A DNA stretch of 64,000 bases from an uncultured Chloroflexia bacterium (GTDB lineage Bacteria > Chloroflexota > Limnocylindria > Limnocylindrales > CSP1-4). The position numbers and the translations under genes were made by a program. Of this stretch, positions 22,325 through 38,635 are shown piece by piece. Numbering within the stretch: the stretch's first letter is position 1; every line of letters starts with the position of its first letter. The DNA lies in the NCBI GenBank assembly GCA_963752475.1, contig CAVVYR010000006.1:128001-192000 (forward strand), read 5' to 3'. A model generated the notes under the pieces. It saw only the letters and a list, made by a program, of their open reading frames with translations, was not told the DNA's origin and searched no databases.

Positions 22325-22545
22325 CTCGGCTCTCATGTCGCCCGGGTCGACGCTATCGGCCGAGTCCCGGCCCGGTGGCCTCGCGATGTGGCCAGACGTC
22401 GCCCGGGTCGGCTCTCATGTCGCCCGGGTCGACGCTATCGGCCGGCCTCGGCTCTCATGTCGCCCGGGTCCGCGCTATCGGCCGAGTCCCGGCCCGGTGG
22501 CCTCGCGATGTGGCCAGACGTCGCCCGGGTCGACGCTATCGGCCG
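22325..22545. repeat. Tandem array of palindromic core GTCGCCCGGGTCGACGCTATCGGCCG
   Basis: Core copies at ~22337, 22398 (truncated), 22419, 22459 and 22520, with duplicated linkers. Confidence 0.9.
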
Positions 22546-22560
22546 CTTCGGGCGTTCTCT

Positions 22561-22743
22561 GTAGCCAGTCGTCGTGGGAGTCGACGGTAGACCTGCTCGG
22601 CGTGGTGGTTGGGCGGTCGTGGCGTCGATCGGGCGTGCGGGGTATGCCCAGCCACGCTCGGGATCGGTGGCGGGCGCGTGCATGACGACATCAGGAGAGA
22701 CTACGAGTGCGACTACCGTCGACTCCGGCGACGCATGTCCACA
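22561..22743. repeat. Solo 183-nt arm core homologous to the inverted arms at 32.0-33.4 kb
   Basis: Ungapped match of blocks A, B and C to 32175-32357, including an identical TATGCCCAGCCACGCTC. Confidence 0.8.
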
Positions 22744-30557: not shown

Positions 30558-30989
30558 CTAGCGGTTCGCCGGTGGCGGACCGGATGGCGGCGGACCGGAT
30601 GGCGGCGGGCCGGATGGTGGCGGGCCGGATGGTGGCGGGCCGGATGGTGGCGGGCCGGGTGGCGGCGCGTATCCCGGAGGTGGTGGTGGCGCTATGGGAG
30701 GCGCTGGGGGTCCGGGCGGCATCGGCGGTGCGCTCGCACCCTGTGGCGCCGGCGGCCGTGGGATGGCGCGATACGCGCCGTCGAGCTCCAACACCTCCTC
30801 CACGAGCGAGGTCGGAGCCACGCCGCCGTTGTGCTCGATGGTGCCCGAGATCCAGGCCGCTTCCGTCCGTCGCTCGGCCTCGCCGAGGTCATCTCGCTGA
30901 CGCGGCAGCCGCACGAGCAGCACGGCCACGAAGCCGGCGCCCAGGCCGAGGCCGACGAGGAACATCCACAGAGCCCAGCCATCGATCAT
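30558..30989 (-). CDS. Membrane-anchored protein with (GPPPS)n tail
   Basis: N-terminal TM; 15-bp coding repeat at ~30570-30665. Confidence 0.65.
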   Translation of the reverse strand: MIDGWALWMFLVGLGLGAGFVAVLLVRLPRQRDDLGEAERRTEAAWISGTIEHNGGVAPTSLVEEVLELDGAYRAIPRPPAPQGASAPPMPPGPPAPPIAPPPPPGYAPPPGPPPSGPPPSGPPPSGPPPSGPPPSGPPPANR

Positions 30990-31053
30990 GGCCGCGAGCA
31001 TATCGTGAGTGCCGCCACAGTGGCGGGGCGGCGTGCTCGGCTATCCTCTCGCG

Positions 31054-31902
31054 GTGCCCCTTGCGTTGATCGACATCACCCCGCCCTCCGGTATCGAGCT
31101 CGGGCCTCTGACCCTGGGCTTCTATGGCATCGGCTATGTCCTGGCCGTCGCCGTGATGCTGCTGGTGAGCCAGGTCGAGGCGCGGCGGAAGGGACTCGAC
31201 CCCGGGCTCGTCACCGGTGCCATCGTGGTGGTGGCGGTCTTCGCGCTGGTCGGCGCTCGGCTGTACCACGTCATCGACGAGTGGGAGCGCTATGCCGCCG
31301 ATCCCATCGCGGCCGTGTTGCCGCCATACTCGGGTCTCGGGCTGTACGGCGGGATCTTCGGCGCGGCCATCGGTATCTGGGTCTACGTGCGGGGCAAGGG
31401 CATCCCCATCGGGCGTGCGCTCGACGTGGTCGTGCCCGGCACGCTCTTCGCCCAGGGCATCGCGCGCTGGGGCAACTTCTTCAACCAGGAGCTGTACGGG
31501 CCACCGACCGAGTTGCCCTGGGGCATCACCATCGACTGCTTCCACCGCGTTGCCCAGTACCCCTGCGAGCTGTACCCCGAGGCCACGACCGGGTTCCACC
31601 CGCTGTTCTTCTACGAGTCGGCGCTGACCATCGCCGGTGGCTTCATCGCGCTCTTCGTCGCGCGCCGTTTCACCGACCGCCTGCTCGATGGCGACCTGGC
31701 TTCGTTCTGGATGGTCTGGTATGGCGGCGTGCGTCTGCTGCTGGAGGTCTTCCGCGACGGCTGGAACTGGACGGTGCTGGGTATCCCGGTGGCGATGCTC
31801 ATCGGCCTGGTGCTGGTGATCGCCGGACTGGCCACCGCCTGGTGGCGCCACTCGCGCGCGCCTGCCGCGTCCCTTCCGCCGACACGACACCAGGGCCCAT
31901 AG
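31054..31902 (+). CDS. lgt: Prolipoprotein diacylglyceryl transferase
   Basis: GARLYHV, GLGLYGG, AQGIARWGNFFNQELYG, HPLFFYES. Confidence 0.95.
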   Translation: MPLALIDITPPSGIELGPLTLGFYGIGYVLAVAVMLLVSQVEARRKGLDPGLVTGAIVVVAVFALVGARLYHVIDEWERYAADPIAAVLPPYSGLGLYGGIFGAAIGIWVYVRGKGIPIGRALDVVVPGTLFAQGIARWGNFFNQELYGPPTELPWGITIDCFHRVAQYPCELYPEATTGFHPLFFYESALTIAGGFIALFVARRFTDRLLDGDLASFWMVWYGGVRLLLEVFRDGWNWTVLGIPVAMLIGLVLVIAGLATAWWRHSRAPAASLPPTRHQGP

Positions 31903-31945
31903 CCGCCCGTCAGCCTCGCTGGCGTTGGCGACCGGACCCCGACCG

Positions 31946-32120
31946 CAGCACCCGCCCGTAGTCGGTTGTCGTGTCGCCCCCATCGACGCCATCGGTCCGG
32001 TCACACAGCACCCGCCCGTAGTCGGTTGTCGTGTCGCCCCCATCGACGCCATCGGCCCGGTCCCGCAGCACCTGCTCGTAGAGCAACTCGTCGTGTCGCC
32101 CCCATCGACGCTATGGGCCG
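31946..32120. repeat. 60-bp tandem repeat x3 carrying core GTCGCCCCCATCGACGCYA
   Basis: Units start at 31946, 32006 and 32066 (third diverged). Confidence 0.9.
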
Positions 32121-33385
32121 CTCGTGGTCGGTTGTCGTCCCTGGCGACGCTACGACCCGATTCGGCCGATCGATGTAGTCACTCGTCGCTGGGGTCGACG
32201 CTAGTCTCGCGAGACCGTGCTGCGTGGCGCTCGGTGGCAGCTGGCCTGTTCACGGCTATGCCCAGCCACGCTCATCGCGCGCCCTCATGGTCGGCCACGA
32301 CCCGGATTCGCTGGCTACGAGTGTGACTGGCGTCGACCGGGACGACGGCTGTCCACAGGTCCCGGCCAAGCCACCGCTAAGTGCACGCGAAGCGACGCCC
32401 GCGATGCTGTCTCGATGGATGACATGAGGATCGGCGCGGCGATTCGCGCCGTGCGAGTTCGACGGCGATGGAGACAAGAAGACGTGGCGGTTCGGGCGGG
32501 CGTTCCTCGGTCGCTCGTCTCTGACATCGAGCGCGGTCACTTCAGCACCACGTCTCTGGCTCGACTGCGAGCGGTGGCGAGTGCACTCGACGTCAGGATC
32601 GATCTCGTTGCACGCTGGCGCGGCGGTGAGCTTGCCAGGCTCCTCAGCGCGAGGCACTCGGCACTGCATGAGGCGATCGCCGCGTACCTTGCGCGTCTCC
32701 CCGGCTGGGAGTTCGCATCCGAGGTCTCGTTCTCGATCTACGGGGAACGTGGTGCCATCGACATCCTGGCGTTCCATCCTGCGACTCGCTCGCTCTTGCT
32801 CATCGAGCTGAAGACGGAGATCGTCGACGTCAATGAGTTGGTGGGCACGCTCGATCGCAAGACTCGTCTTGCGCGTCGGATCGCGGCCGAGCGTGGCTGG
32901 GAGGCTCGATCGGTGAGTCGGTGGGTCATCGTCACACGCGACAAGACGAACCAGCGGCGTATCGAGGCGCACCGCTCGATGTTGCGAACGGCATTGCCGG
33001 CCGACGGCCACGCGATGCGGAGTTGGCTCGCGCATCCAGCGGCGTCGATCTCCGGCCTATCGATGTGGACAGCCGTCGTCCCGGTCGACGCCAGTCCCAC
33101 TCGTAGTCAGCGGATCCGGGCAGTGGCTGGCCATGAGAGCGAACGATGAGCGTGGCTGGGCATAGCCGTGAACAGGCCAGCTGCCACGGAGCGCCACGCA
33201 GCACGGTCTCGCGAGACTAGCGTCGACCCCAGCGACGAGTGACTACATGGATCGGCCGAATCGGGTCGTAGCGTCGTCAGGGACGACAACCGACTACGAG
33301 CGGCCCATAGCGTCGATGGGGGCGACACGGCGACACGACGAGTTGCTCGACGAGCGGGTGCTGCGGGATCGGGCCGATAGCGTCG
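32044..33385. mobile_element. Putative selfish element: ~315-bp inverted arms flanking an HTH-nuclease gene
   Basis: 32044-32357 is the reverse complement of 33064-33385 (about 18 mismatches plus one 8-bp duplication, counted by eye). It lies between convergent genes. Mobility is inferred; no target-site duplication was seen. Confidence 0.6.
32415..33149 (+). CDS. XRE-type HTH + PD-(D/E)XK nuclease-fold protein (244 aa)
   Basis: IRAVRVRRRWRQEDVAVRAGVPRSLVSDIERG (XRE HTH); SEVSF..ERGAIDIL..LLLIELKT (E..D..ExK). Confidence 0.85.
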   Translation: MDDMRIGAAIRAVRVRRRWRQEDVAVRAGVPRSLVSDIERGHFSTTSLARLRAVASALDVRIDLVARWRGGELARLLSARHSALHEAIAAYLARLPGWEFASEVSFSIYGERGAIDILAFHPATRSLLLIELKTEIVDVNELVGTLDRKTRLARRIAAERGWEARSVSRWVIVTRDKTNQRRIEAHRSMLRTALPADGHAMRSWLAHPAASISGLSMWTAVVPVDASPTRSQRIRAVAGHESER

Positions 33386-33444
33386 GTAGGTACGTCGAAC
33401 GTAGCACCGGCTGGGTTGCTGCGTCGGACGGGGAGCCCGGAAGC

Positions 33445-36102
33445 CTAGGAGTCGGCTCGGCGATAGAAGGCGATGAGCTGCGTGGTGCCGCGCAGGTTGT
33501 GGCCGTTGAGGACGAGGAAGTCATCGAGGCCGTTGCCGTCGTGGTCGATGGCGAAGGCATCATCGCCGGCGCCGTCGGAGACCTGCGGGATGATCATCGA
33601 GGACCAGGCCCGGCCGTTGTCACGGTTCACGAGCATGATGTCGTGCACGTTCTTCTCGGGGGCGCTGCGCATGAGGTAGATGTCGCCGCGCCCGTCGCCG
33701 TTGACGTCGCCCGAGGCGAGTGCTCGACCCTCGGTCAGATTGCGCTCGAAGACCTTGGTGAAGCGGCCCTTCTTCTGCAGGCTGACCTTGATCTTGCCTT
33801 GTGAGAGCTGCACGAGGTCCAGCTTGCCGTCCTTGTTGAGGTCCACGAGCTCGGCGTCCATCTCGTCGAAGGACTTGATGCCCATCTTGCCGGTGACGTC
33901 GACGAGACCCGTCTTGGTGTTGCGGTATAGCCGCGTCGAGCCGGCCTCGGCCGTCTGAGGGCCGCCGGTCACGAGCAGCACGTCCTCGCGGCCGTCGCCG
34001 TCGTAGTCGGCATCCTGCAGCGCGCGTGCGCCGAGGCGAGCGGCGATGCCTGGCGTGGCCTTGGCCTTGAGCTTCCGCTGGCCGACGGTGCGGAAGAGCC
34101 GTGCCAGCGAAGGCAGGCCGTCGACGCGCGTCGGCGAGTTGGTCAGAACGAGGTCGATGGCCTTCTGCTTCTTCGACTCCAGGAAGGCCGACAGACGTCC
34201 ACGGCCGGTCTGATCGGCACCGCCCCAGGTCGAGGCCACCTCGACCGGCGCCGGACCGCCCGGATCGAGCCACAGCTCGTTGGTCTTGAGACCCGAGCCA
34301 CGCTTGCCGCCGACCGCGCAATAGATGTCCGGCAGGCCGCTGCCGTCCACGTCCGCGGAGGTGCAGCCGTGGCGGTCGAGCGATGACAGCTTCAACGGCT
34401 CGTGCTCGACGAAGACGCCGTTGCGGTTCAGCAGCAAACGGGCCATCCGTCCGTGGCGCCCGATGAACAGGTCATCCACGCCGTCGCCATCGAAGTCATC
34501 CACGACCGCGTCATACGTGCCCGTCTCCTCGTGCACGCCAGCCGGCTTGGCCACGTCCTTGGCCACGATCTTGGGGTGTGCCTCGGCCAGCGGCAGCGTG
34601 CCGATCTTCTTGTTGATCTTGACCGCCTTCTCGCCGTCCTTGCGGTTGTCGGCCGCCGCGTCCGGGTGGGCTTCATCGTACGTCTCGAGGTCATCGGCTT
34701 CGAACAGATCGAACTCATCCTCGTCCGCCTCCGCCGTTCCAGCCGTCTCGGCCGGTGGCGTGATCTCTTCGGCCGAGGCCGGCTCCGAGGTGCCGAAGAC
34801 GCCGGTCTGGGGCGGGGTACACACGCGCACCGCACGACCACTGCCGTTGGAGCGGCCCACGGCCCAGCCGTTGCCGCTGAGCGAGCCGACCGCGTCGTGG
34901 AGCTCGGTGCCGCCGGACTCGCCCGACACCTCGTTCCAGGCACGTCCGTCCCACCAGGCCGCGATCGACTCGTGCACCTTGCGCTCGTCATCGAAGGCGG
35001 CACCGACGACCCAGATGCCACCGGCCGGGTCGATCGAGATCGCGTTGAGGATGACGTCGTGCGAGTCCCACTTGGGCGCCTTGGCGGTCTTCCACTTCTT
35101 GCCGTTCCAGCGCAGCACGAGCGGCTTCGTTGCGCCATCGCGCTTGTGGTAGCCGACGGCCCAGCTCTCGTTGCCGTGGGTAGCGATGATGTCGGTGAGC
35201 GCGGCCTCGCCCTTGAGGTTGGGCAGCTCGTACTGGCGCCACTTGCCGGCGTCGCGGTTCCAGATGGCCGCCTTCACCTGTGCGCCCGCGCCGCCGTGGC
35301 CGGCGACCCAGGTGCCGCCCTTCTTGTCGGGGGCGACGCCGGTGAGCGTCAGTGACTCGGTGCGGCCGATGGACATGGGGATCGAGCGCCAGCGCGGCCC
35401 GTCCTTGCGGATGACGAGCGGCTTGCGGCGGCCCTTGTCACCCATGCGGTAGCCGACGGCGAAGGGGCTGCCGTCACCCACGATGGTGACGTCGATGAAG
35501 GCGGCCACCGAGGCGTCGACGTTGGGCCGATCGGTCTTCCAGCCGGCGCCGTTCCAGCGCATCGCCAGCGGCTTGACCTCCGCCCCGAGCGTGGTGAAGC
35601 CCACGGCCCACGTGTCCGAGTCATCGCGCCAGGCCACGGACATCAGTCCGTCCTCATCGCCGGGGCTCGAGGCCACGACACGGTTCCAGTCGTTGCCGCG
35701 GTTGACGACGCTGACCGGTGCGCGAAGGCCGCTGTGGCCGGGGATGCTGCGGCGGGCGTAGCCCACCGCGATCGTGCCCTTGCCCGTCCGAGTCACGCCG
35801 TGGAGCGACATGTTGGTCTTGCTGTCGACCTCGACGAAGCCCTGCGCGCAGACGACTGGTTCGCCCTTGGCGTTGTCTGCGCTGGTGATCTTGCCGCTGC
35901 CGTTCTGCTCGCGATCGTCCTTGGCCCCGAGCACGGCGTGGCCCGGTGCGATGGCCAGGCCATCGGCGAGCAGCAGCACAGAAAGGCCGAGCGCGATCAA
36001 CGGCGCGCGCTTCAAGCCACGAAGACGGGGCACGATCGAAGAGATTAGACCGCTCCGCACGAATGTGCCGGTATCGCCCCTTGGTACGGTGCGTGCGCGC
36101 AC
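33445..36102 (-). CDS. Secreted beta-propeller (W[ND]GxxW repeats) + FG-GAP/VCBS protein, paralog 1
   Basis: Signal-like hydrophobic stretch; LRWNGKKW repeats; DFDGDGVDD and GDVNGDGRGD Ca-binding loops; start uncertain. Confidence 0.8.
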   Translation of the reverse strand: MRARTVPRGDTGTFVRSGLISSIVPRLRGLKRAPLIALGLSVLLLADGLAIAPGHAVLGAKDDREQNGSGKITSADNAKGEPVVCAQGFVEVDSKTNMSLHGVTRTGKGTIAVGYARRSIPGHSGLRAPVSVVNRGNDWNRVVASSPGDEDGLMSVAWRDDSDTWAVGFTTLGAEVKPLAMRWNGAGWKTDRPNVDASVAAFIDVTIVGDGSPFAVGYRMGDKGRRKPLVIRKDGPRWRSIPMSIGRTESLTLTGVAPDKKGGTWVAGHGGAGAQVKAAIWNRDAGKWRQYELPNLKGEAALTDIIATHGNESWAVGYHKRDGATKPLVLRWNGKKWKTAKAPKWDSHDVILNAISIDPAGGIWVVGAAFDDERKVHESIAAWWDGRAWNEVSGESGGTELHDAVGSLSGNGWAVGRSNGSGRAVRVCTPPQTGVFGTSEPASAEEITPPAETAGTAEADEDEFDLFEADDLETYDEAHPDAAADNRKDGEKAVKINKKIGTLPLAEAHPKIVAKDVAKPAGVHEETGTYDAVVDDFDGDGVDDLFIGRHGRMARLLLNRNGVFVEHEPLKLSSLDRHGCTSADVDGSGLPDIYCAVGGKRGSGLKTNELWLDPGGPAPVEVASTWGGADQTGRGRLSAFLESKKQKAIDLVLTNSPTRVDGLPSLARLFRTVGQRKLKAKATPGIAARLGARALQDADYDGDGREDVLLVTGGPQTAEAGSTRLYRNTKTGLVDVTGKMGIKSFDEMDAELVDLNKDGKLDLVQLSQGKIKVSLQKKGRFTKVFERNLTEGRALASGDVNGDGRGDIYLMRSAPEKNVHDIMLVNRDNGRAWSSMIIPQVSDGAGDDAFAIDHDGNGLDDFLVLNGHNLRGTTQLIAFYRRADS

Positions 36103-36115
36103 CGTCCGTACGGGC

Positions 36116-38635
36116 CTACTTGCGAGGGAACGAGGCCAGCAGCTGGATGGGGCCGGCCTTGGTGCGGCCGTTGAGCACGACGAAGTCCATCAGCCCGTTC
36201 CGGTCGTAGTCGAGGGCGAAGACGTCATCGGCCGAGCCGGCGGAGGTCTGGGGGATCTTGACCGAGGCGAACTTGGTGCCGGCGTTGCGACTCACGAGCA
36301 GGCGATCGGGCCTGTTGCGTTTGTCGTTGCCACGCGCGACGTAGATGTCCGCTCGACCGTCGCCGCTGGCATCGCCCGTGGCGAGCGCCCAGGCATCGGT
36401 GATCTTGACCTCGTAGATGCGCTTGTAGCCGCCACGGGTCCACTTGCTCACGCGCAGCCGGTTCGAGGACAGCTGGATGAGGTCCTTGTTCCGGTCACCC
36501 GTCACGTCAGCGAAGGAGACGTCGATGTCGCCGATCGGCCTGATGTTCAGCTGCGCCGTGCGGTCCTTGAGCTTGCCGCCCTCGTTGCGCATGAAGCGCA
36601 GGCCGGCCTTGCGTCCGCTGAAGCCGTACTGCGTGCAGTAGACAAGGTCCTCATCGCCGTCACCGTCGAAGTCCCCGGTTTCGACGCACTCGGCACCGTG
36701 GGACGAGTCGAGGCCGACCCCGGGCGTCGGACGGAGCTCGCCATTGACGTTGGTGTAGAAGCGGTTGTAGACCGGCCAGCCGTCGTCGCGGTCGGGGGCG
36801 TTGGTGATGAAGACGTCGGCGTACTTGTCGCGGTTGAGATCGAACACCGCGGCGTGCCGCCCACGGCCCAGCGGGTCGCTGATGCCCAGTGAATCCCTGG
36901 CCAGCGTGCGAGTGGCAAGGGCCGGCTCGAGTGACAGCTCGTGCCGCTTCATGGACTTGCCTCTCGATGCGCCGACCGCGCAGAGGATGTCTCTGCTGCC
37001 GTCGCCATCGAGGTCACCATGGTCACACCCATGGCGGTCGACCGGGCTGTAGGCCTTGTTCCCGGCCGTGTTGAACTTGCCGTTCTTGTTCATGGCGAGC
37101 CGGGGCATGATCGAGCCGTGGCGGCTGTAGAAGACGTCGGTCCAGCCGTTGCCGTCGAAGTCGGTGGCAAAGCCGTCGAACGTCTTGGTCGTCTGCTTCA
37201 GGCCCGATGCCGCGGCCATGTCCTTGACCCAGAAGCGGGGATGGTTGACGGGCTTGGCCGCCAGCTCCAGGGCCCGGGCCGAGTCGCCCGAGATCGAGAA
37301 CGCGCGGTTGGAAGTGTCATCGGTGACGGTGGCGGTGTGCTCATCATGGACGTGTGGCTGTTCCCGCTGCGACGCCTTTCGGGCGCCCATGCGACTGACG
37401 GTCAGCTTGCGCTTGGTCGTGCGCTGCTTGAGGTTGGCCGGCTTGACCGCCGCGGGCAGGTTCTCACCGCAGGCCTTGAGCGCCAGCAGCGAGGCGCCGA
37501 CGGTGGCAGCCGCGACCGCACCCTTGTCGGTGGCGGCCACGGCCATGACCTCCGAGCGGACGTCGTCGGGCGTGCCCAGCGTCGAGAGGCGCCAAGTGTC
37601 CCCCTTGCCGTTGGCCACGAAGCCGCGAGTCTCCCGCGTCTCGTTGGCGGTCTTGGTGCCGGCGATCCAGATGGTGCCGTCGGCGCCCACCGAGACCGAA
37701 CGCGGCAGGCCCTCGAACTCGGTGGCCCAGGGCAGGGGCACGCCACGCCACGACTTGCCATCCCAGTGCAGCAGGATGACGCGGTGGTCGTCCGACCCGT
37801 CCTTCGAGAGGTAGCCCACGGCATAGCCGTTGTTGCCGCCACGGAAGTGCACGTCGGTGAGGACGGCGTTTCCGGCGGGGATGCCGCTGACCTTGTAGGG
37901 CTTCCAGCCCTTGCCCGCGCGACGGACGACGTAGGCGCGCGGACGGCCGGGCTTGGACTCCTTCCAGCCCACGGCCCAGACCGCACCGGTGCTGGCACGG
38001 CTGATGCCGAGCAGTCCGGAGCCGCTGCCCTTGAAGGGGTCCTGGCGGACCCAGCGCTTGCCGTTCCAGTACATGCCGGTGGCCTGCAGCTTGCCGTTCT
38101 GGAGGCGCGTGCCTACGGCCAGCGCCTTGCCGCGTGGGAGCGACACGACGTCGGTGAGCGAGGCGCGAGGACCGGGCATGTCGGGCACGGCGCGGCCCTT
38201 CCAGCTGTTGCCGACGATCTGTCCGCTGGTGGGCTTGAGCGACCCGGAACCGTTGCCGATGAAGGGCCGGTAGTAGCCCACGCCGAGGATCCTGTCGGAG
38301 CCGATGGCAGTCGCGCCCACGAGGCCGCGATGGCCGGTGGTCGAGCGCGCAGCCTGCTTCCACTTGCCGCCGCTCCAGCGCAGCGCCAGCACACCGGTGT
38401 TGGTGCCGCCGACGATCCAGGCCTCCTGGCCCTTGTGCACGACGATGTCGAAGGCGGTGGAAAGGAAGGTCGAGTCCGGCGTGCTCACTTCCCTCCAGCC
38501 GTTCACGCAGGCGCCAGTCGCCGCCTCCGCCGGTGCCGGCGCTCGAACGCCGATGAGACCGACGAGCATCACGGACGCGATGAGCCCGATGGTCAAGCGG
38601 GTGCGGCCGAGCGTTCGTCCCATGGAGGTGGTCAC
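36116..38635 (-). CDS. Secreted beta-propeller + FG-GAP/VCBS protein, paralog 2
   Basis: Same architecture; DFDGNGWTD, DPLGRGR. Confidence 0.8.
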   Translation of the reverse strand: MTTSMGRTLGRTRLTIGLIASVMLVGLIGVRAPAPAEAATGACVNGWREVSTPDSTFLSTAFDIVVHKGQEAWIVGGTNTGVLALRWSGGKWKQAARSTTGHRGLVGATAIGSDRILGVGYYRPFIGNGSGSLKPTSGQIVGNSWKGRAVPDMPGPRASLTDVVSLPRGKALAVGTRLQNGKLQATGMYWNGKRWVRQDPFKGSGSGLLGISRASTGAVWAVGWKESKPGRPRAYVVRRAGKGWKPYKVSGIPAGNAVLTDVHFRGGNNGYAVGYLSKDGSDDHRVILLHWDGKSWRGVPLPWATEFEGLPRSVSVGADGTIWIAGTKTANETRETRGFVANGKGDTWRLSTLGTPDDVRSEVMAVAATDKGAVAAATVGASLLALKACGENLPAAVKPANLKQRTTKRKLTVSRMGARKASQREQPHVHDEHTATVTDDTSNRAFSISGDSARALELAAKPVNHPRFWVKDMAAASGLKQTTKTFDGFATDFDGNGWTDVFYSRHGSIMPRLAMNKNGKFNTAGNKAYSPVDRHGCDHGDLDGDGSRDILCAVGASRGKSMKRHELSLEPALATRTLARDSLGISDPLGRGRHAAVFDLNRDKYADVFITNAPDRDDGWPVYNRFYTNVNGELRPTPGVGLDSSHGAECVETGDFDGDGDEDLVYCTQYGFSGRKAGLRFMRNEGGKLKDRTAQLNIRPIGDIDVSFADVTGDRNKDLIQLSSNRLRVSKWTRGGYKRIYEVKITDAWALATGDASGDGRADIYVARGNDKRNRPDRLLVSRNAGTKFASVKIPQTSAGSADDVFALDYDRNGLMDFVVLNGRTKAGPIQLLASFPRK

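Follow-up and report, generated by a model that had tools for sequence, protein, structure and literature searches.

Within a 64,000-nt stretch of DNA (the window, G000:C6:128001-192000) from the Limnocylindria metagenome-assembled genome (MAG) G000, we found a gene for a 244-amino-acid (aa) protein that joins an XRE-family helix-turn-helix (HTH) to a nuclease fold of the PD-(D/E)XK type, and whose coding sequence ends inside a long palindromic repeat dispersed through the same genome. Fusion of the 3′ end to such a repeat recurs across the gene family, and both the gene with its flanking repeats and solitary copies of the repeat are present in some relatives and absent from others. The putative catalytic residues are conserved, and no gene was found in G000 for a RAYT (a tyrosine transposase associated with repetitive extragenic palindromes, REPs) or for an Ssn-like nuclease. 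To our knowledge, the origin and spread of bacterial palindromic repeats are understood for two enzyme classes only, the HUH RAYTs and, since 2025, the GIY-YIG Ssn nucleases. We lean, with some reserve, towards the view that gene and repeat form a partnership like that of RAYTs with REPs or of Ssn nucleases with NTS repeats, built on a third class of enzyme. We more tentatively propose that Limnocylindria hold a third, undescribed nuclease-repeat class, in which lineage-specific XRE-HTH plus PD-(D/E)XK genes end inside their own long palindromic elements, site-specific cutting and host repair, with no transposase, would let the enzymes create, move or homogenise these elements, and each paralog would co-evolve with its own repeat family. 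No description of this enzyme-repeat pair was found in a full-text literature search, which is not proof of absence.

A gene that ends inside a long repeat

The MAG comprises 4.25 Mb in 38 contigs at 68% G+C, and is 88.8% complete with 5.8% contamination. The gene (32415..33149 of the window, + strand; start set by the N-termini of homologs, MDD...) encodes an HTH at about aa 1-60, a predicted nuclease core at about aa 72-218 and a tail at aa 222-244, and lies between two inverted arms that enclose a 706-nt segment. The arms are 94% complementary over 270 nt without gaps (32088-32357 and 33064-33333) and extend outward for another 62 nt at 90% (32039-32100 and 33329-33390); BLAST joins them in a single gapped alignment of 322 nt at 91.9%. 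This similarity is far above chance, and it bears out an earlier reading of the window made from its letters alone (the sequence-only reading), which had placed inverted arms of ~315 bp and ~94% identity around a single 244-aa HTH-nuclease gene. The left arm (32039..32357, + strand) is a full copy of the dispersed repeat, ends sharply at TGTCCACA (32350-32357), and stops 57 nt before the start codon. Within it, a 184-nt unit (32174..32357, + strand) has inverted ends of 33 nt, 73% alike and 118 nt apart, at 32174-32206 (TGTAGTCA...TAGTC) and 32325-32357 (GACT...TGTCCACA), with the core TATGCCCAGCCACGCTCA between them at 32257-32274; these blocks are conserved in 32 aligned copies. The right arm (33064..33390, - strand) is an inverted copy of the left, and its unit occupies 33064..33258 (- strand), with inverted ends inside 33053-33096 and 33215-33258 (44 nt, 75%, 118 nt apart).

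The arms do bracket the gene, as had been claimed, but the right arm also overlaps its last 28 codons (33064-33149). It begins in the gene at ATG-TGG-ACA, that is M217-W218-T219; the tail of the protein, Trp218 onward, is encoded by its inner 86 nt, and translation stops at a TGA (33147-33149) within the conserved TGAGCGTGG block of the right-arm unit. Since the unit starts at the Trp218 codon, its edge coincides with the end of the folded domain, and the disordered tail is translated from unit sequence. The left side alone has two 60-nt tandem units (31946-32005 and 32006-32065; 31946..32065 together, + strand), which are 95% identical and share sub-motifs with other repeat groups; each holds one GT[AG]G-headed GTCG-N7-CGACGC palindrome. 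The sequence-only reading had recognized these extra units, while the palindrome core that it gave as GTCG-N6-CGAC was found to be GTCG-N7-CGAC. The whole inserted module of outer palindromes, left arm, gene and right arm spans 31903..33441, between the stop codon of lgt (31900-31902) and that of a convergent FG-GAP gene (33445-33447). It contains no partner gene such as a methylase or toxin and no transposase gene, and neither a sigma-70 promoter nor an intrinsic terminator was found in 31850-33500.

The sequence-only reading allowed that the inversion might be an assembly artefact, which can be ruled out. Some 6% of positions differ between the arms, two further genomes have this layout (L017, which is the same as L036, and L035), and Logan contigs from two different studies span both arm/gene junctions (32328-32752 and 32754-33093 in run X1, possibly the source sample of G000; 32328-32503 and 32799-33093 in run X3). 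Joints between apparently opposite strands in run X3 were traced to one related-strain right-arm contig that had been split between two near-identical arms.

Fusion at the same Trp codon is seen in the syntenic ortholog L017 (G013) and in L016 (G014) and L025 (G024), which share a second locus different from lgt/FG-GAP. A paralog, par2 (G000:C19:62350-63045; 45% identical), is fused at this codon to another element, which we call family 2 to distinguish it from the repeat of the arms (family 1). Family-2 elements are ~190-220 nt long with the ends TTTCTGGTCGAATGTCAC... and ...GTGACATTCGACCAG, and four solo copies lie elsewhere in G000. The family-2 end is retained in par2 orthologs (loci L022 and L024; genomes G009 and G004), and in G004 the unit is fused to the gene. 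A second paralog, par1 (63% identical), has only a decayed 28-nt inverted pair and no dispersed copies; L037, which is syntenic with par1, still has a family-1-like end.

The family is large: of 8,000 candidate proteins scored, 1,459 passed E<=0.001. To measure the association across the family, we compared the 73 nt around the Trp codon with the 270 nt that follow and took the score of their best inverted match, with a threshold of z>3. This was exceeded at 20 of 50 genome loci (a few of them the same place fetched by two tools) and at 10 of 28 metagenome loci; of 39 metagenome loci fetched, these 28 had sufficient sequence downstream and could be aligned as far as residue 214. The control, 3′ ends of other G000 genes, gave 8 of 300. 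A 3′ inverted repeat is thus found at 36-40% of family loci vs. 2.7% of control ends. The named homolog records are Candidatus Limnocylindrales/Limnocylindria or otherwise Chloroflexota MAGs. When the flanks of homologs were checked for arms on both sides, as the sequence-only reading had proposed, double arms proved not to be a family trait: among 55 homolog loci they occur only at the locus itself, L017 (L036) and L035, all between lgt and the FG-GAP gene, with a weak 46-nt inverted pair at L031. The single 3′ unit is the general feature.

By profile matches above curated cut-offs, the N-terminus of the protein is an XRE-family HTH (HTH_3, E 2.7e-10, 40.6 bits, cut-off 23; HTH_37, E 1.1e-10, 41.6 bits, cut-off 27), and a sequence profile search of the PDB returned HTH proteins only. 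The remainder matches a PD-(D/E)XK family weakly by sequence (YhcG_C, E 0.0055, under the cut-off), and its fold was assigned because of invariant residues, an AlphaFold model and structure matches. Across 22 aligned family members the residues E103, D116, E131 and K133 never vary; by motif, they would form the catalytic E...D...(D/E)xK set. The AlphaFold model (mean pLDDT 81, >90 across most of aa 80-220) has a strand-rich core at aa 72-218, and the last 23 residues (222-244) are predicted to be disordered. The core matched the XisH-like structure 2okf (Z 9.7 over 112 residues, rmsd 3.2), AF1548 (1y88, Z 9.1), NucS (2vld, Z 8.9), the R2 endonuclease domain (Z 8.3) and Can2. Though the Z values are moderate, they place the model among restriction-endonuclease-like folds, in line with the XRE-HTH plus PD-(D/E)XK composition originally read from the sequence. 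The top Foldseek match is Shedu SduA (8ps5, E 2e-5, TM-score only 0.26); the protein has no DUF4263-type Pfam match and no PADLOC Shedu match.

The HTH is structurally nearest to C.AhdI (Z 10.6, 32% identity over 63 residues), C.BclI, HipB and SinR, and PADLOC returned HTH-only matches (HTH_VI, capH and control proteins) along with weak PDC-S02 matches. Together with the SduA match and the position of the left arm just ahead of the start codon, this could indicate a regulator or a defence/repair nuclease whose palindromes are autoregulation operators, the dispersed copies being its regulon or decoys. The protein resembles the controller (C) proteins of restriction-modification systems, which act on C-box operators, in its N-terminal HTH and in having palindromic boxes upstream of its own gene. 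It departs from them in having a nuclease core joined to its HTH, in lacking an adjacent gene for a methylase or a separate endonuclease, and in that the boxes belong to a dispersed element. We regard the operator explanation as very improbable: the module has no methylase or toxin partner, the units are 185-480 nt long, of constant length, with conserved non-box cores, and follow genes rather than precede them, and their insertion polymorphism would be left unexplained.

The repeat family and its insertion polymorphism

Contigs C23 and C24 duplicate 18.5 kb of contig C8 (213377-231914) at 99.3-99.5% identity, so that strain variants are present in the MAG; both contigs were left out of the copy count. 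With a profile built from 8 copies, 35 near-full-length family-1 copies were found in G000, the two arms included, and many fragments besides. One further copy lies in the window, a solo unit at 22509..22743 (G000:C6:150509-150743, + strand; nhmmer E 7e-33; E 1.7e-28 with a second model, R1). The genome-wide count, which the sequence-only reading had called for, shows that the arms are not private to the locus.

All family-1 copies stop sharply at TGTCCACA, and the unit measures 183-186 nt in 29 of the 35. Its first end reads TGT[AG]GnCA-nn-CGTCG-N5-GTCGAC-nn-TAGTC; the core TATGCCCnnnCACGCTC and then GTGACTACGAG are the conserved inner blocks, and the closing inverted end is GACTAnGGTCGAC-N5-CGACG-nn-TGTCCACA. 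Beyond the first end lie one to several extra copies of the first box, with a period of ~52-66 nt. The genome has 179 occurrences of the box motif vs. 28 in the reversed genome; each box is preceded by a GT[AG]G head, and its stem is merely 4-5 bp. Between the conserved blocks the sequence varies freely, and the median pairwise identity of units is 56%. [quoted passage not shown] The copies sit in spacers (19 convergent, 13 tandem, 2 divergent), and the TGTGGACA end points at the 3′ end of a gene in 29 of 35 copies, including, by our reading of the table, 10 of the 13 tandem cases.

A structured RNA was considered as the main explanation of the unit and rejected. Rfam (E<=1) gave nothing relevant, only one chance miRNA match outside the arms; RNAalifold, run on 32 copies, predicted 14 pairs, its covariation term being -0.07; and the unit ends were complementary in 78.1% of cells vs. 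76.7% after shuffling, a value reached by 19 of 500 shuffles. Given this and the pattern of conservation, the unit looks like a set of protein-binding boxes held at fixed spacing on DNA. In a sediment RNA library (run X7), contigs cover 32817-33239, from the 3′ half of the gene through the unit to just short of its far end; they hint weakly at co-transcription of the unit with the gene, and such libraries can contain DNA. At G000:C8:221620-221790 (L007), beside a solo unit, there is a ~26-28-nt tandem repeat (GGGCGCCTGGGCAGGTGCGTTTCACT) in 3-4 copies, the number of which varies between strain-variant contigs.

The lgt/FG-GAP junction is occupied by the ~1.54-kb module in G000, G013 and the genome of L035. 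Besides the occupied G013, five congeners were searched (G014, G024, G010, G001 and G006) and the junction is empty in all five, with flanks 25-58 nt apart in BLAST matches. The convergent genes abut there, and in three of the five genomes their stop codons overlap in CTAG. An empty junction had been named by the sequence-only reading as a check, and a syntenic, fixed locus as the opposite outcome; the check came out positive in these five congeners, and at least two other genomes keep the locus in synteny by vertical descent. The insert in G000 is flanked by ..ATAG and CTAG.. vs. the one shared CTAG of three empty-site relatives, which could be a 3-nt (TAG) duplication or merely reflect selection for two stop codons. 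The earlier claim that the module lacks a transposase or recombinase holds as regards a transposase gene, but its lack of a target-site duplication is uncertain. Solo units are polymorphic too. A ~600-nt unit-bearing insert just after dnaE (C7:448730-449002) is absent in G013, G014, G001 and G024, and shows no clear target duplication. These empty sites indicate that the module and the solo elements were both gained or lost since the species split. Where the dnaE insert begins (G000:C7:448530-448620; L003, ~1300-1390), the last ~33 nt of dnaE (..GACGGnCTGCTnCAGnTGTCGCTGGTGTAG) are tandemly doubled, with one copy in relatives; the doubling could be a trace of the insertion event.

The occupied and empty sites could also be explained if the gene were the mobile party, that is, a free-standing homing-type endonuclease gene whose product recognises unit ends already in place and which is copied in beside them, with the units as landing pads. 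Unit ends of the TGTGGACA type adjoin the gene at several loci that are unrelated to one another (lgt/FG-GAP, that of L016/L025 and that of par1), and the G+C content of the gene at third codon positions is below that of its neighbours (0.73 vs. 0.89 in flanking genes). Moreover, at the L016/L025 locus G000 has the unit with no gene in the 60 nt before the contig end. There, a solo unit (G000:C8:637787-638109) lies 60 nt from the end of C8 at the place where G014 and G024 carry gene and unit; either the gene was lost in G000, or the assembly broke at a second gene copy, and the contig end bars a firm statement. At lgt/FG-GAP, however, gene and arms were gained or lost together, and a solo unit is found there in no relative. 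Since the loci are also mostly vertically kept and lack an intron or intein context, we think homing improbable.

Copying within the genome is suggested by two pairs of solo copies at unlinked loci, 96% and 93.5% identical, which point to fairly recent events. The arms of the locus are 94.4% alike, vs. 58.8% for the arm pair in G013 and 50% for that in L035. The arms of G000 and G013 are 52-58% alike, and the flanking genes are 80-84% identical. As the arms of the locus are far more alike than the arm pairs of its orthologs, one arm was copied onto the other recently in the G000 lineage.

Co-occurrence was surveyed in 24 congeners with model R1 (E<=1e-6, matches counted on both strands), which replaced an earlier BLAST search of 48 congeners that had found unit matches in 6, with 15 candidates scored per genome. 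Family-1 units number 25 in G013, 18 in G006, 7 in G014 and 5 in G024, and G022 has a single weak match. A gene of 65% identity or more is present in G013, G014 and G024 (frameshifted in the last), and G006, an assembly of 520 contigs, has a gene fragment only, at a contig end. For family 2, a weak model from 5 sequences (R2) gave low-copy matches in 5 of 24 congeners, in loose relation to the gene.

Proposed partnership, passive alternative and known systems

These observations suggest how a partnership might work. The HTH, probably as a dimer, would read GT[AG]GnCA-nn-CGTCG-N5-7-CGACG boxes in the element ends, the nuclease would nick or cut at or near these ends, and host repair or recombination would copy, move or homogenise the elements. 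The 3′-fused copy, together with the upstream copy where present, would be a cis site for the protein, probably in autoregulation. A RAYT or an Ssn nuclease as the driver was rejected: PF01797 (Y1_Tnp, RAYT) had no match in the whole of G000, which is 88.8% complete, while control genomes did match, and the sole GIY-YIG match in G000 lies in a 620-aa frame, with no Ssn-like nuclease gene found. The protein itself has no GIY-YIG match, its Pfam matches being HTH families and the weak YhcG_C only. Seven adjacent pairs of opposed boxes, spaced 450-8000 nt, were inspected for a parent element that combines a transposase with matching ends, and none was found; one pair encloses this gene, and two enclose IS110-family DNA inserted into units.

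Several points weigh against a partnership. A PD-(D/E)XK nuclease alone cannot join strands, and a transposase may lie in the part of the genome missing from the MAG. No significant 3′ repeat was found at 30 of 50 genome and 18 of 28 metagenome loci, most homologs (at or below 65% identity) are without a detectable family-1 unit, and the double arms were found at one syntenic locus only. Family 1 is old, as its median identity indicates. The idea that its solo copies arose from these arms as master copies is unsupported; the arms rank low against the consensus, and the recent copies do not derive from them. In the 96% pair, the shared segment is ~480 nt, includes the outer boxes and continues ~17 nt past TGTCCACA, so that the copied piece was a whole arm and the ends were not cut precisely at the inverted end. 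The co-occurrence of gene and units across congeners fits a partnership but could equally reflect shared descent within a sub-clade. As judged by the weak R2 model, G005 has a family-2 unit where no gene was found, and G007, G018, G019 and G020 hold homologs at 45-49% identity, about the distance of par2 but not shown to be its orthologs, with no family-2 unit detected.

The imprecise copy boundaries, the divergence of the arms from the consensus and from the recent copies, the many homologs without detectable units and the incompleteness of the MAG would also be expected if the units were passive neighbours. They would then be ordinary MITE- or REP-like repeats, moved by another enzyme (unassembled or lost) or by host recombination and favouring spacers after stop codons, and the fusion would be an old 3′ insertion that was inherited. 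Units follow gene ends genome-wide, and the IS110-family pieces are other mobile DNA that uses them. It is harder to explain in this way why two repeat families start at the same Trp codon in two paralog clades, why a 3′ repeat is so much more frequent at family loci than at control ends, and why no transposase element with matching ends was found among the opposed box pairs. We consider passive association unlikely, though it deserves to be taken seriously. As for the partnership that we favour, the analogy with REPs drawn by the sequence-only reading gains from a specific repeat-gene link that recurs in par2, from the lack of a RAYT and from the empty junctions; it is weakened in that double arms are local and the arms are themselves dispersed copies.

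Tyrosine-transposase genes bordered by REPs or long terminal inverted repeats ('REPtrons' and 'TIRtrons'), which can overlap the gene ends, are described by Di Nocera et al. (2013; PMC3733652), along with moderately abundant families with terminal inverted repeats, CGTC-tagged REPs without a dedicated enzyme, and whole repeat superfamilies for which none was found. As portrayed there, REP/RAYT systems resemble the present one in a low-copy, mostly vertically inherited gene flanked by inverted palindromic repeat copies, with possible overlap of its 3′ end, in dispersal of the repeat after gene ends, in separate gene lineages with separate cognate repeats, and in sub-repeats that open with GT[AG]G followed by a short palindrome. 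Unlike in REP/RAYT systems, the enzyme is an XRE-HTH plus PD-(D/E)XK protein rather than an HUH tyrosine transposase, and the elements are 185-480 nt long with multiple boxes, not 20-40-nt hairpins, with no evidence of selection for single-strand hairpins. GIY-YIG Ssn nucleases are likewise flanked by their own dispersed hairpin repeats (NTS/SRM), according to part of Chenal et al. (2025; PMC11893778). In that account, too, a nuclease gene is bordered, on one side or on both, by a dispersed palindromic repeat of its own, and the association was found by flank and co-occurrence statistics; here, co-occurrence is confounded by relatedness. In contrast to the Ssn/NTS pair, the nuclease belongs to another superfamily, and the repeat differs in sequence, is much longer and is fused to the coding end.

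The units are also like MITEs in their inverted ends, small size, non-coding nature, intergenic dispersal and insertion polymorphism between relatives. They differ from MITEs in that no transposase parent with matching ends was found, a target duplication, if there is one, measures no more than 3 nt (TAG), and the only linked gene encodes a restriction-fold nuclease. If the partnership is real, evolution would have arrived independently at the same lifestyle with a restriction-fold nuclease that has its own HTH and is joined codon by codon to a long repeat, and the system would offer a testable model of how repeats spread by cutting and repair without a transposase. A new sequence- or structure-specific nuclease could come out of it as well, and so could a marker of genome dynamics for an abundant, uncultured soil and freshwater lineage.

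Other mobile DNA and neighbouring genes

IS110-family elements target REP sequences, according to a passage in PMC1525189, and the present units may serve as targets for this family. On the same contig, outside the window, an IS110-family transposase gene in two frames (G000:C6:209735-211571) lies between two direct copies of a unit that are 98.8% identical over 250 nt. A 497-nt piece of the same element (99%; G000:C6:98861-99357) interrupts another unit just past its first inverted end, and a third copy of the element (G000:C26:102508-103007) lies near the end of contig C26.

On the right of the module, the convergent FG-GAP gene is the first of two large tandem paralogs (33445-36102 and 36116-38635, both - strand), of 885 and 839 aa by the listing of open reading frames (ORFs); the 885-aa paralog has FG-GAP repeat matches at its C-terminus. 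An extra paralog of this family is found directly after lgt in G006, so that the FG-GAP gene family is likewise in flux at the junction. On the left, the ORF just upstream of lgt (30558-31001, - strand) ends in six tandem GPPPS repeats (..SGPPPSGPPPSGPPP..) that form a proline-rich, low-complexity tail.

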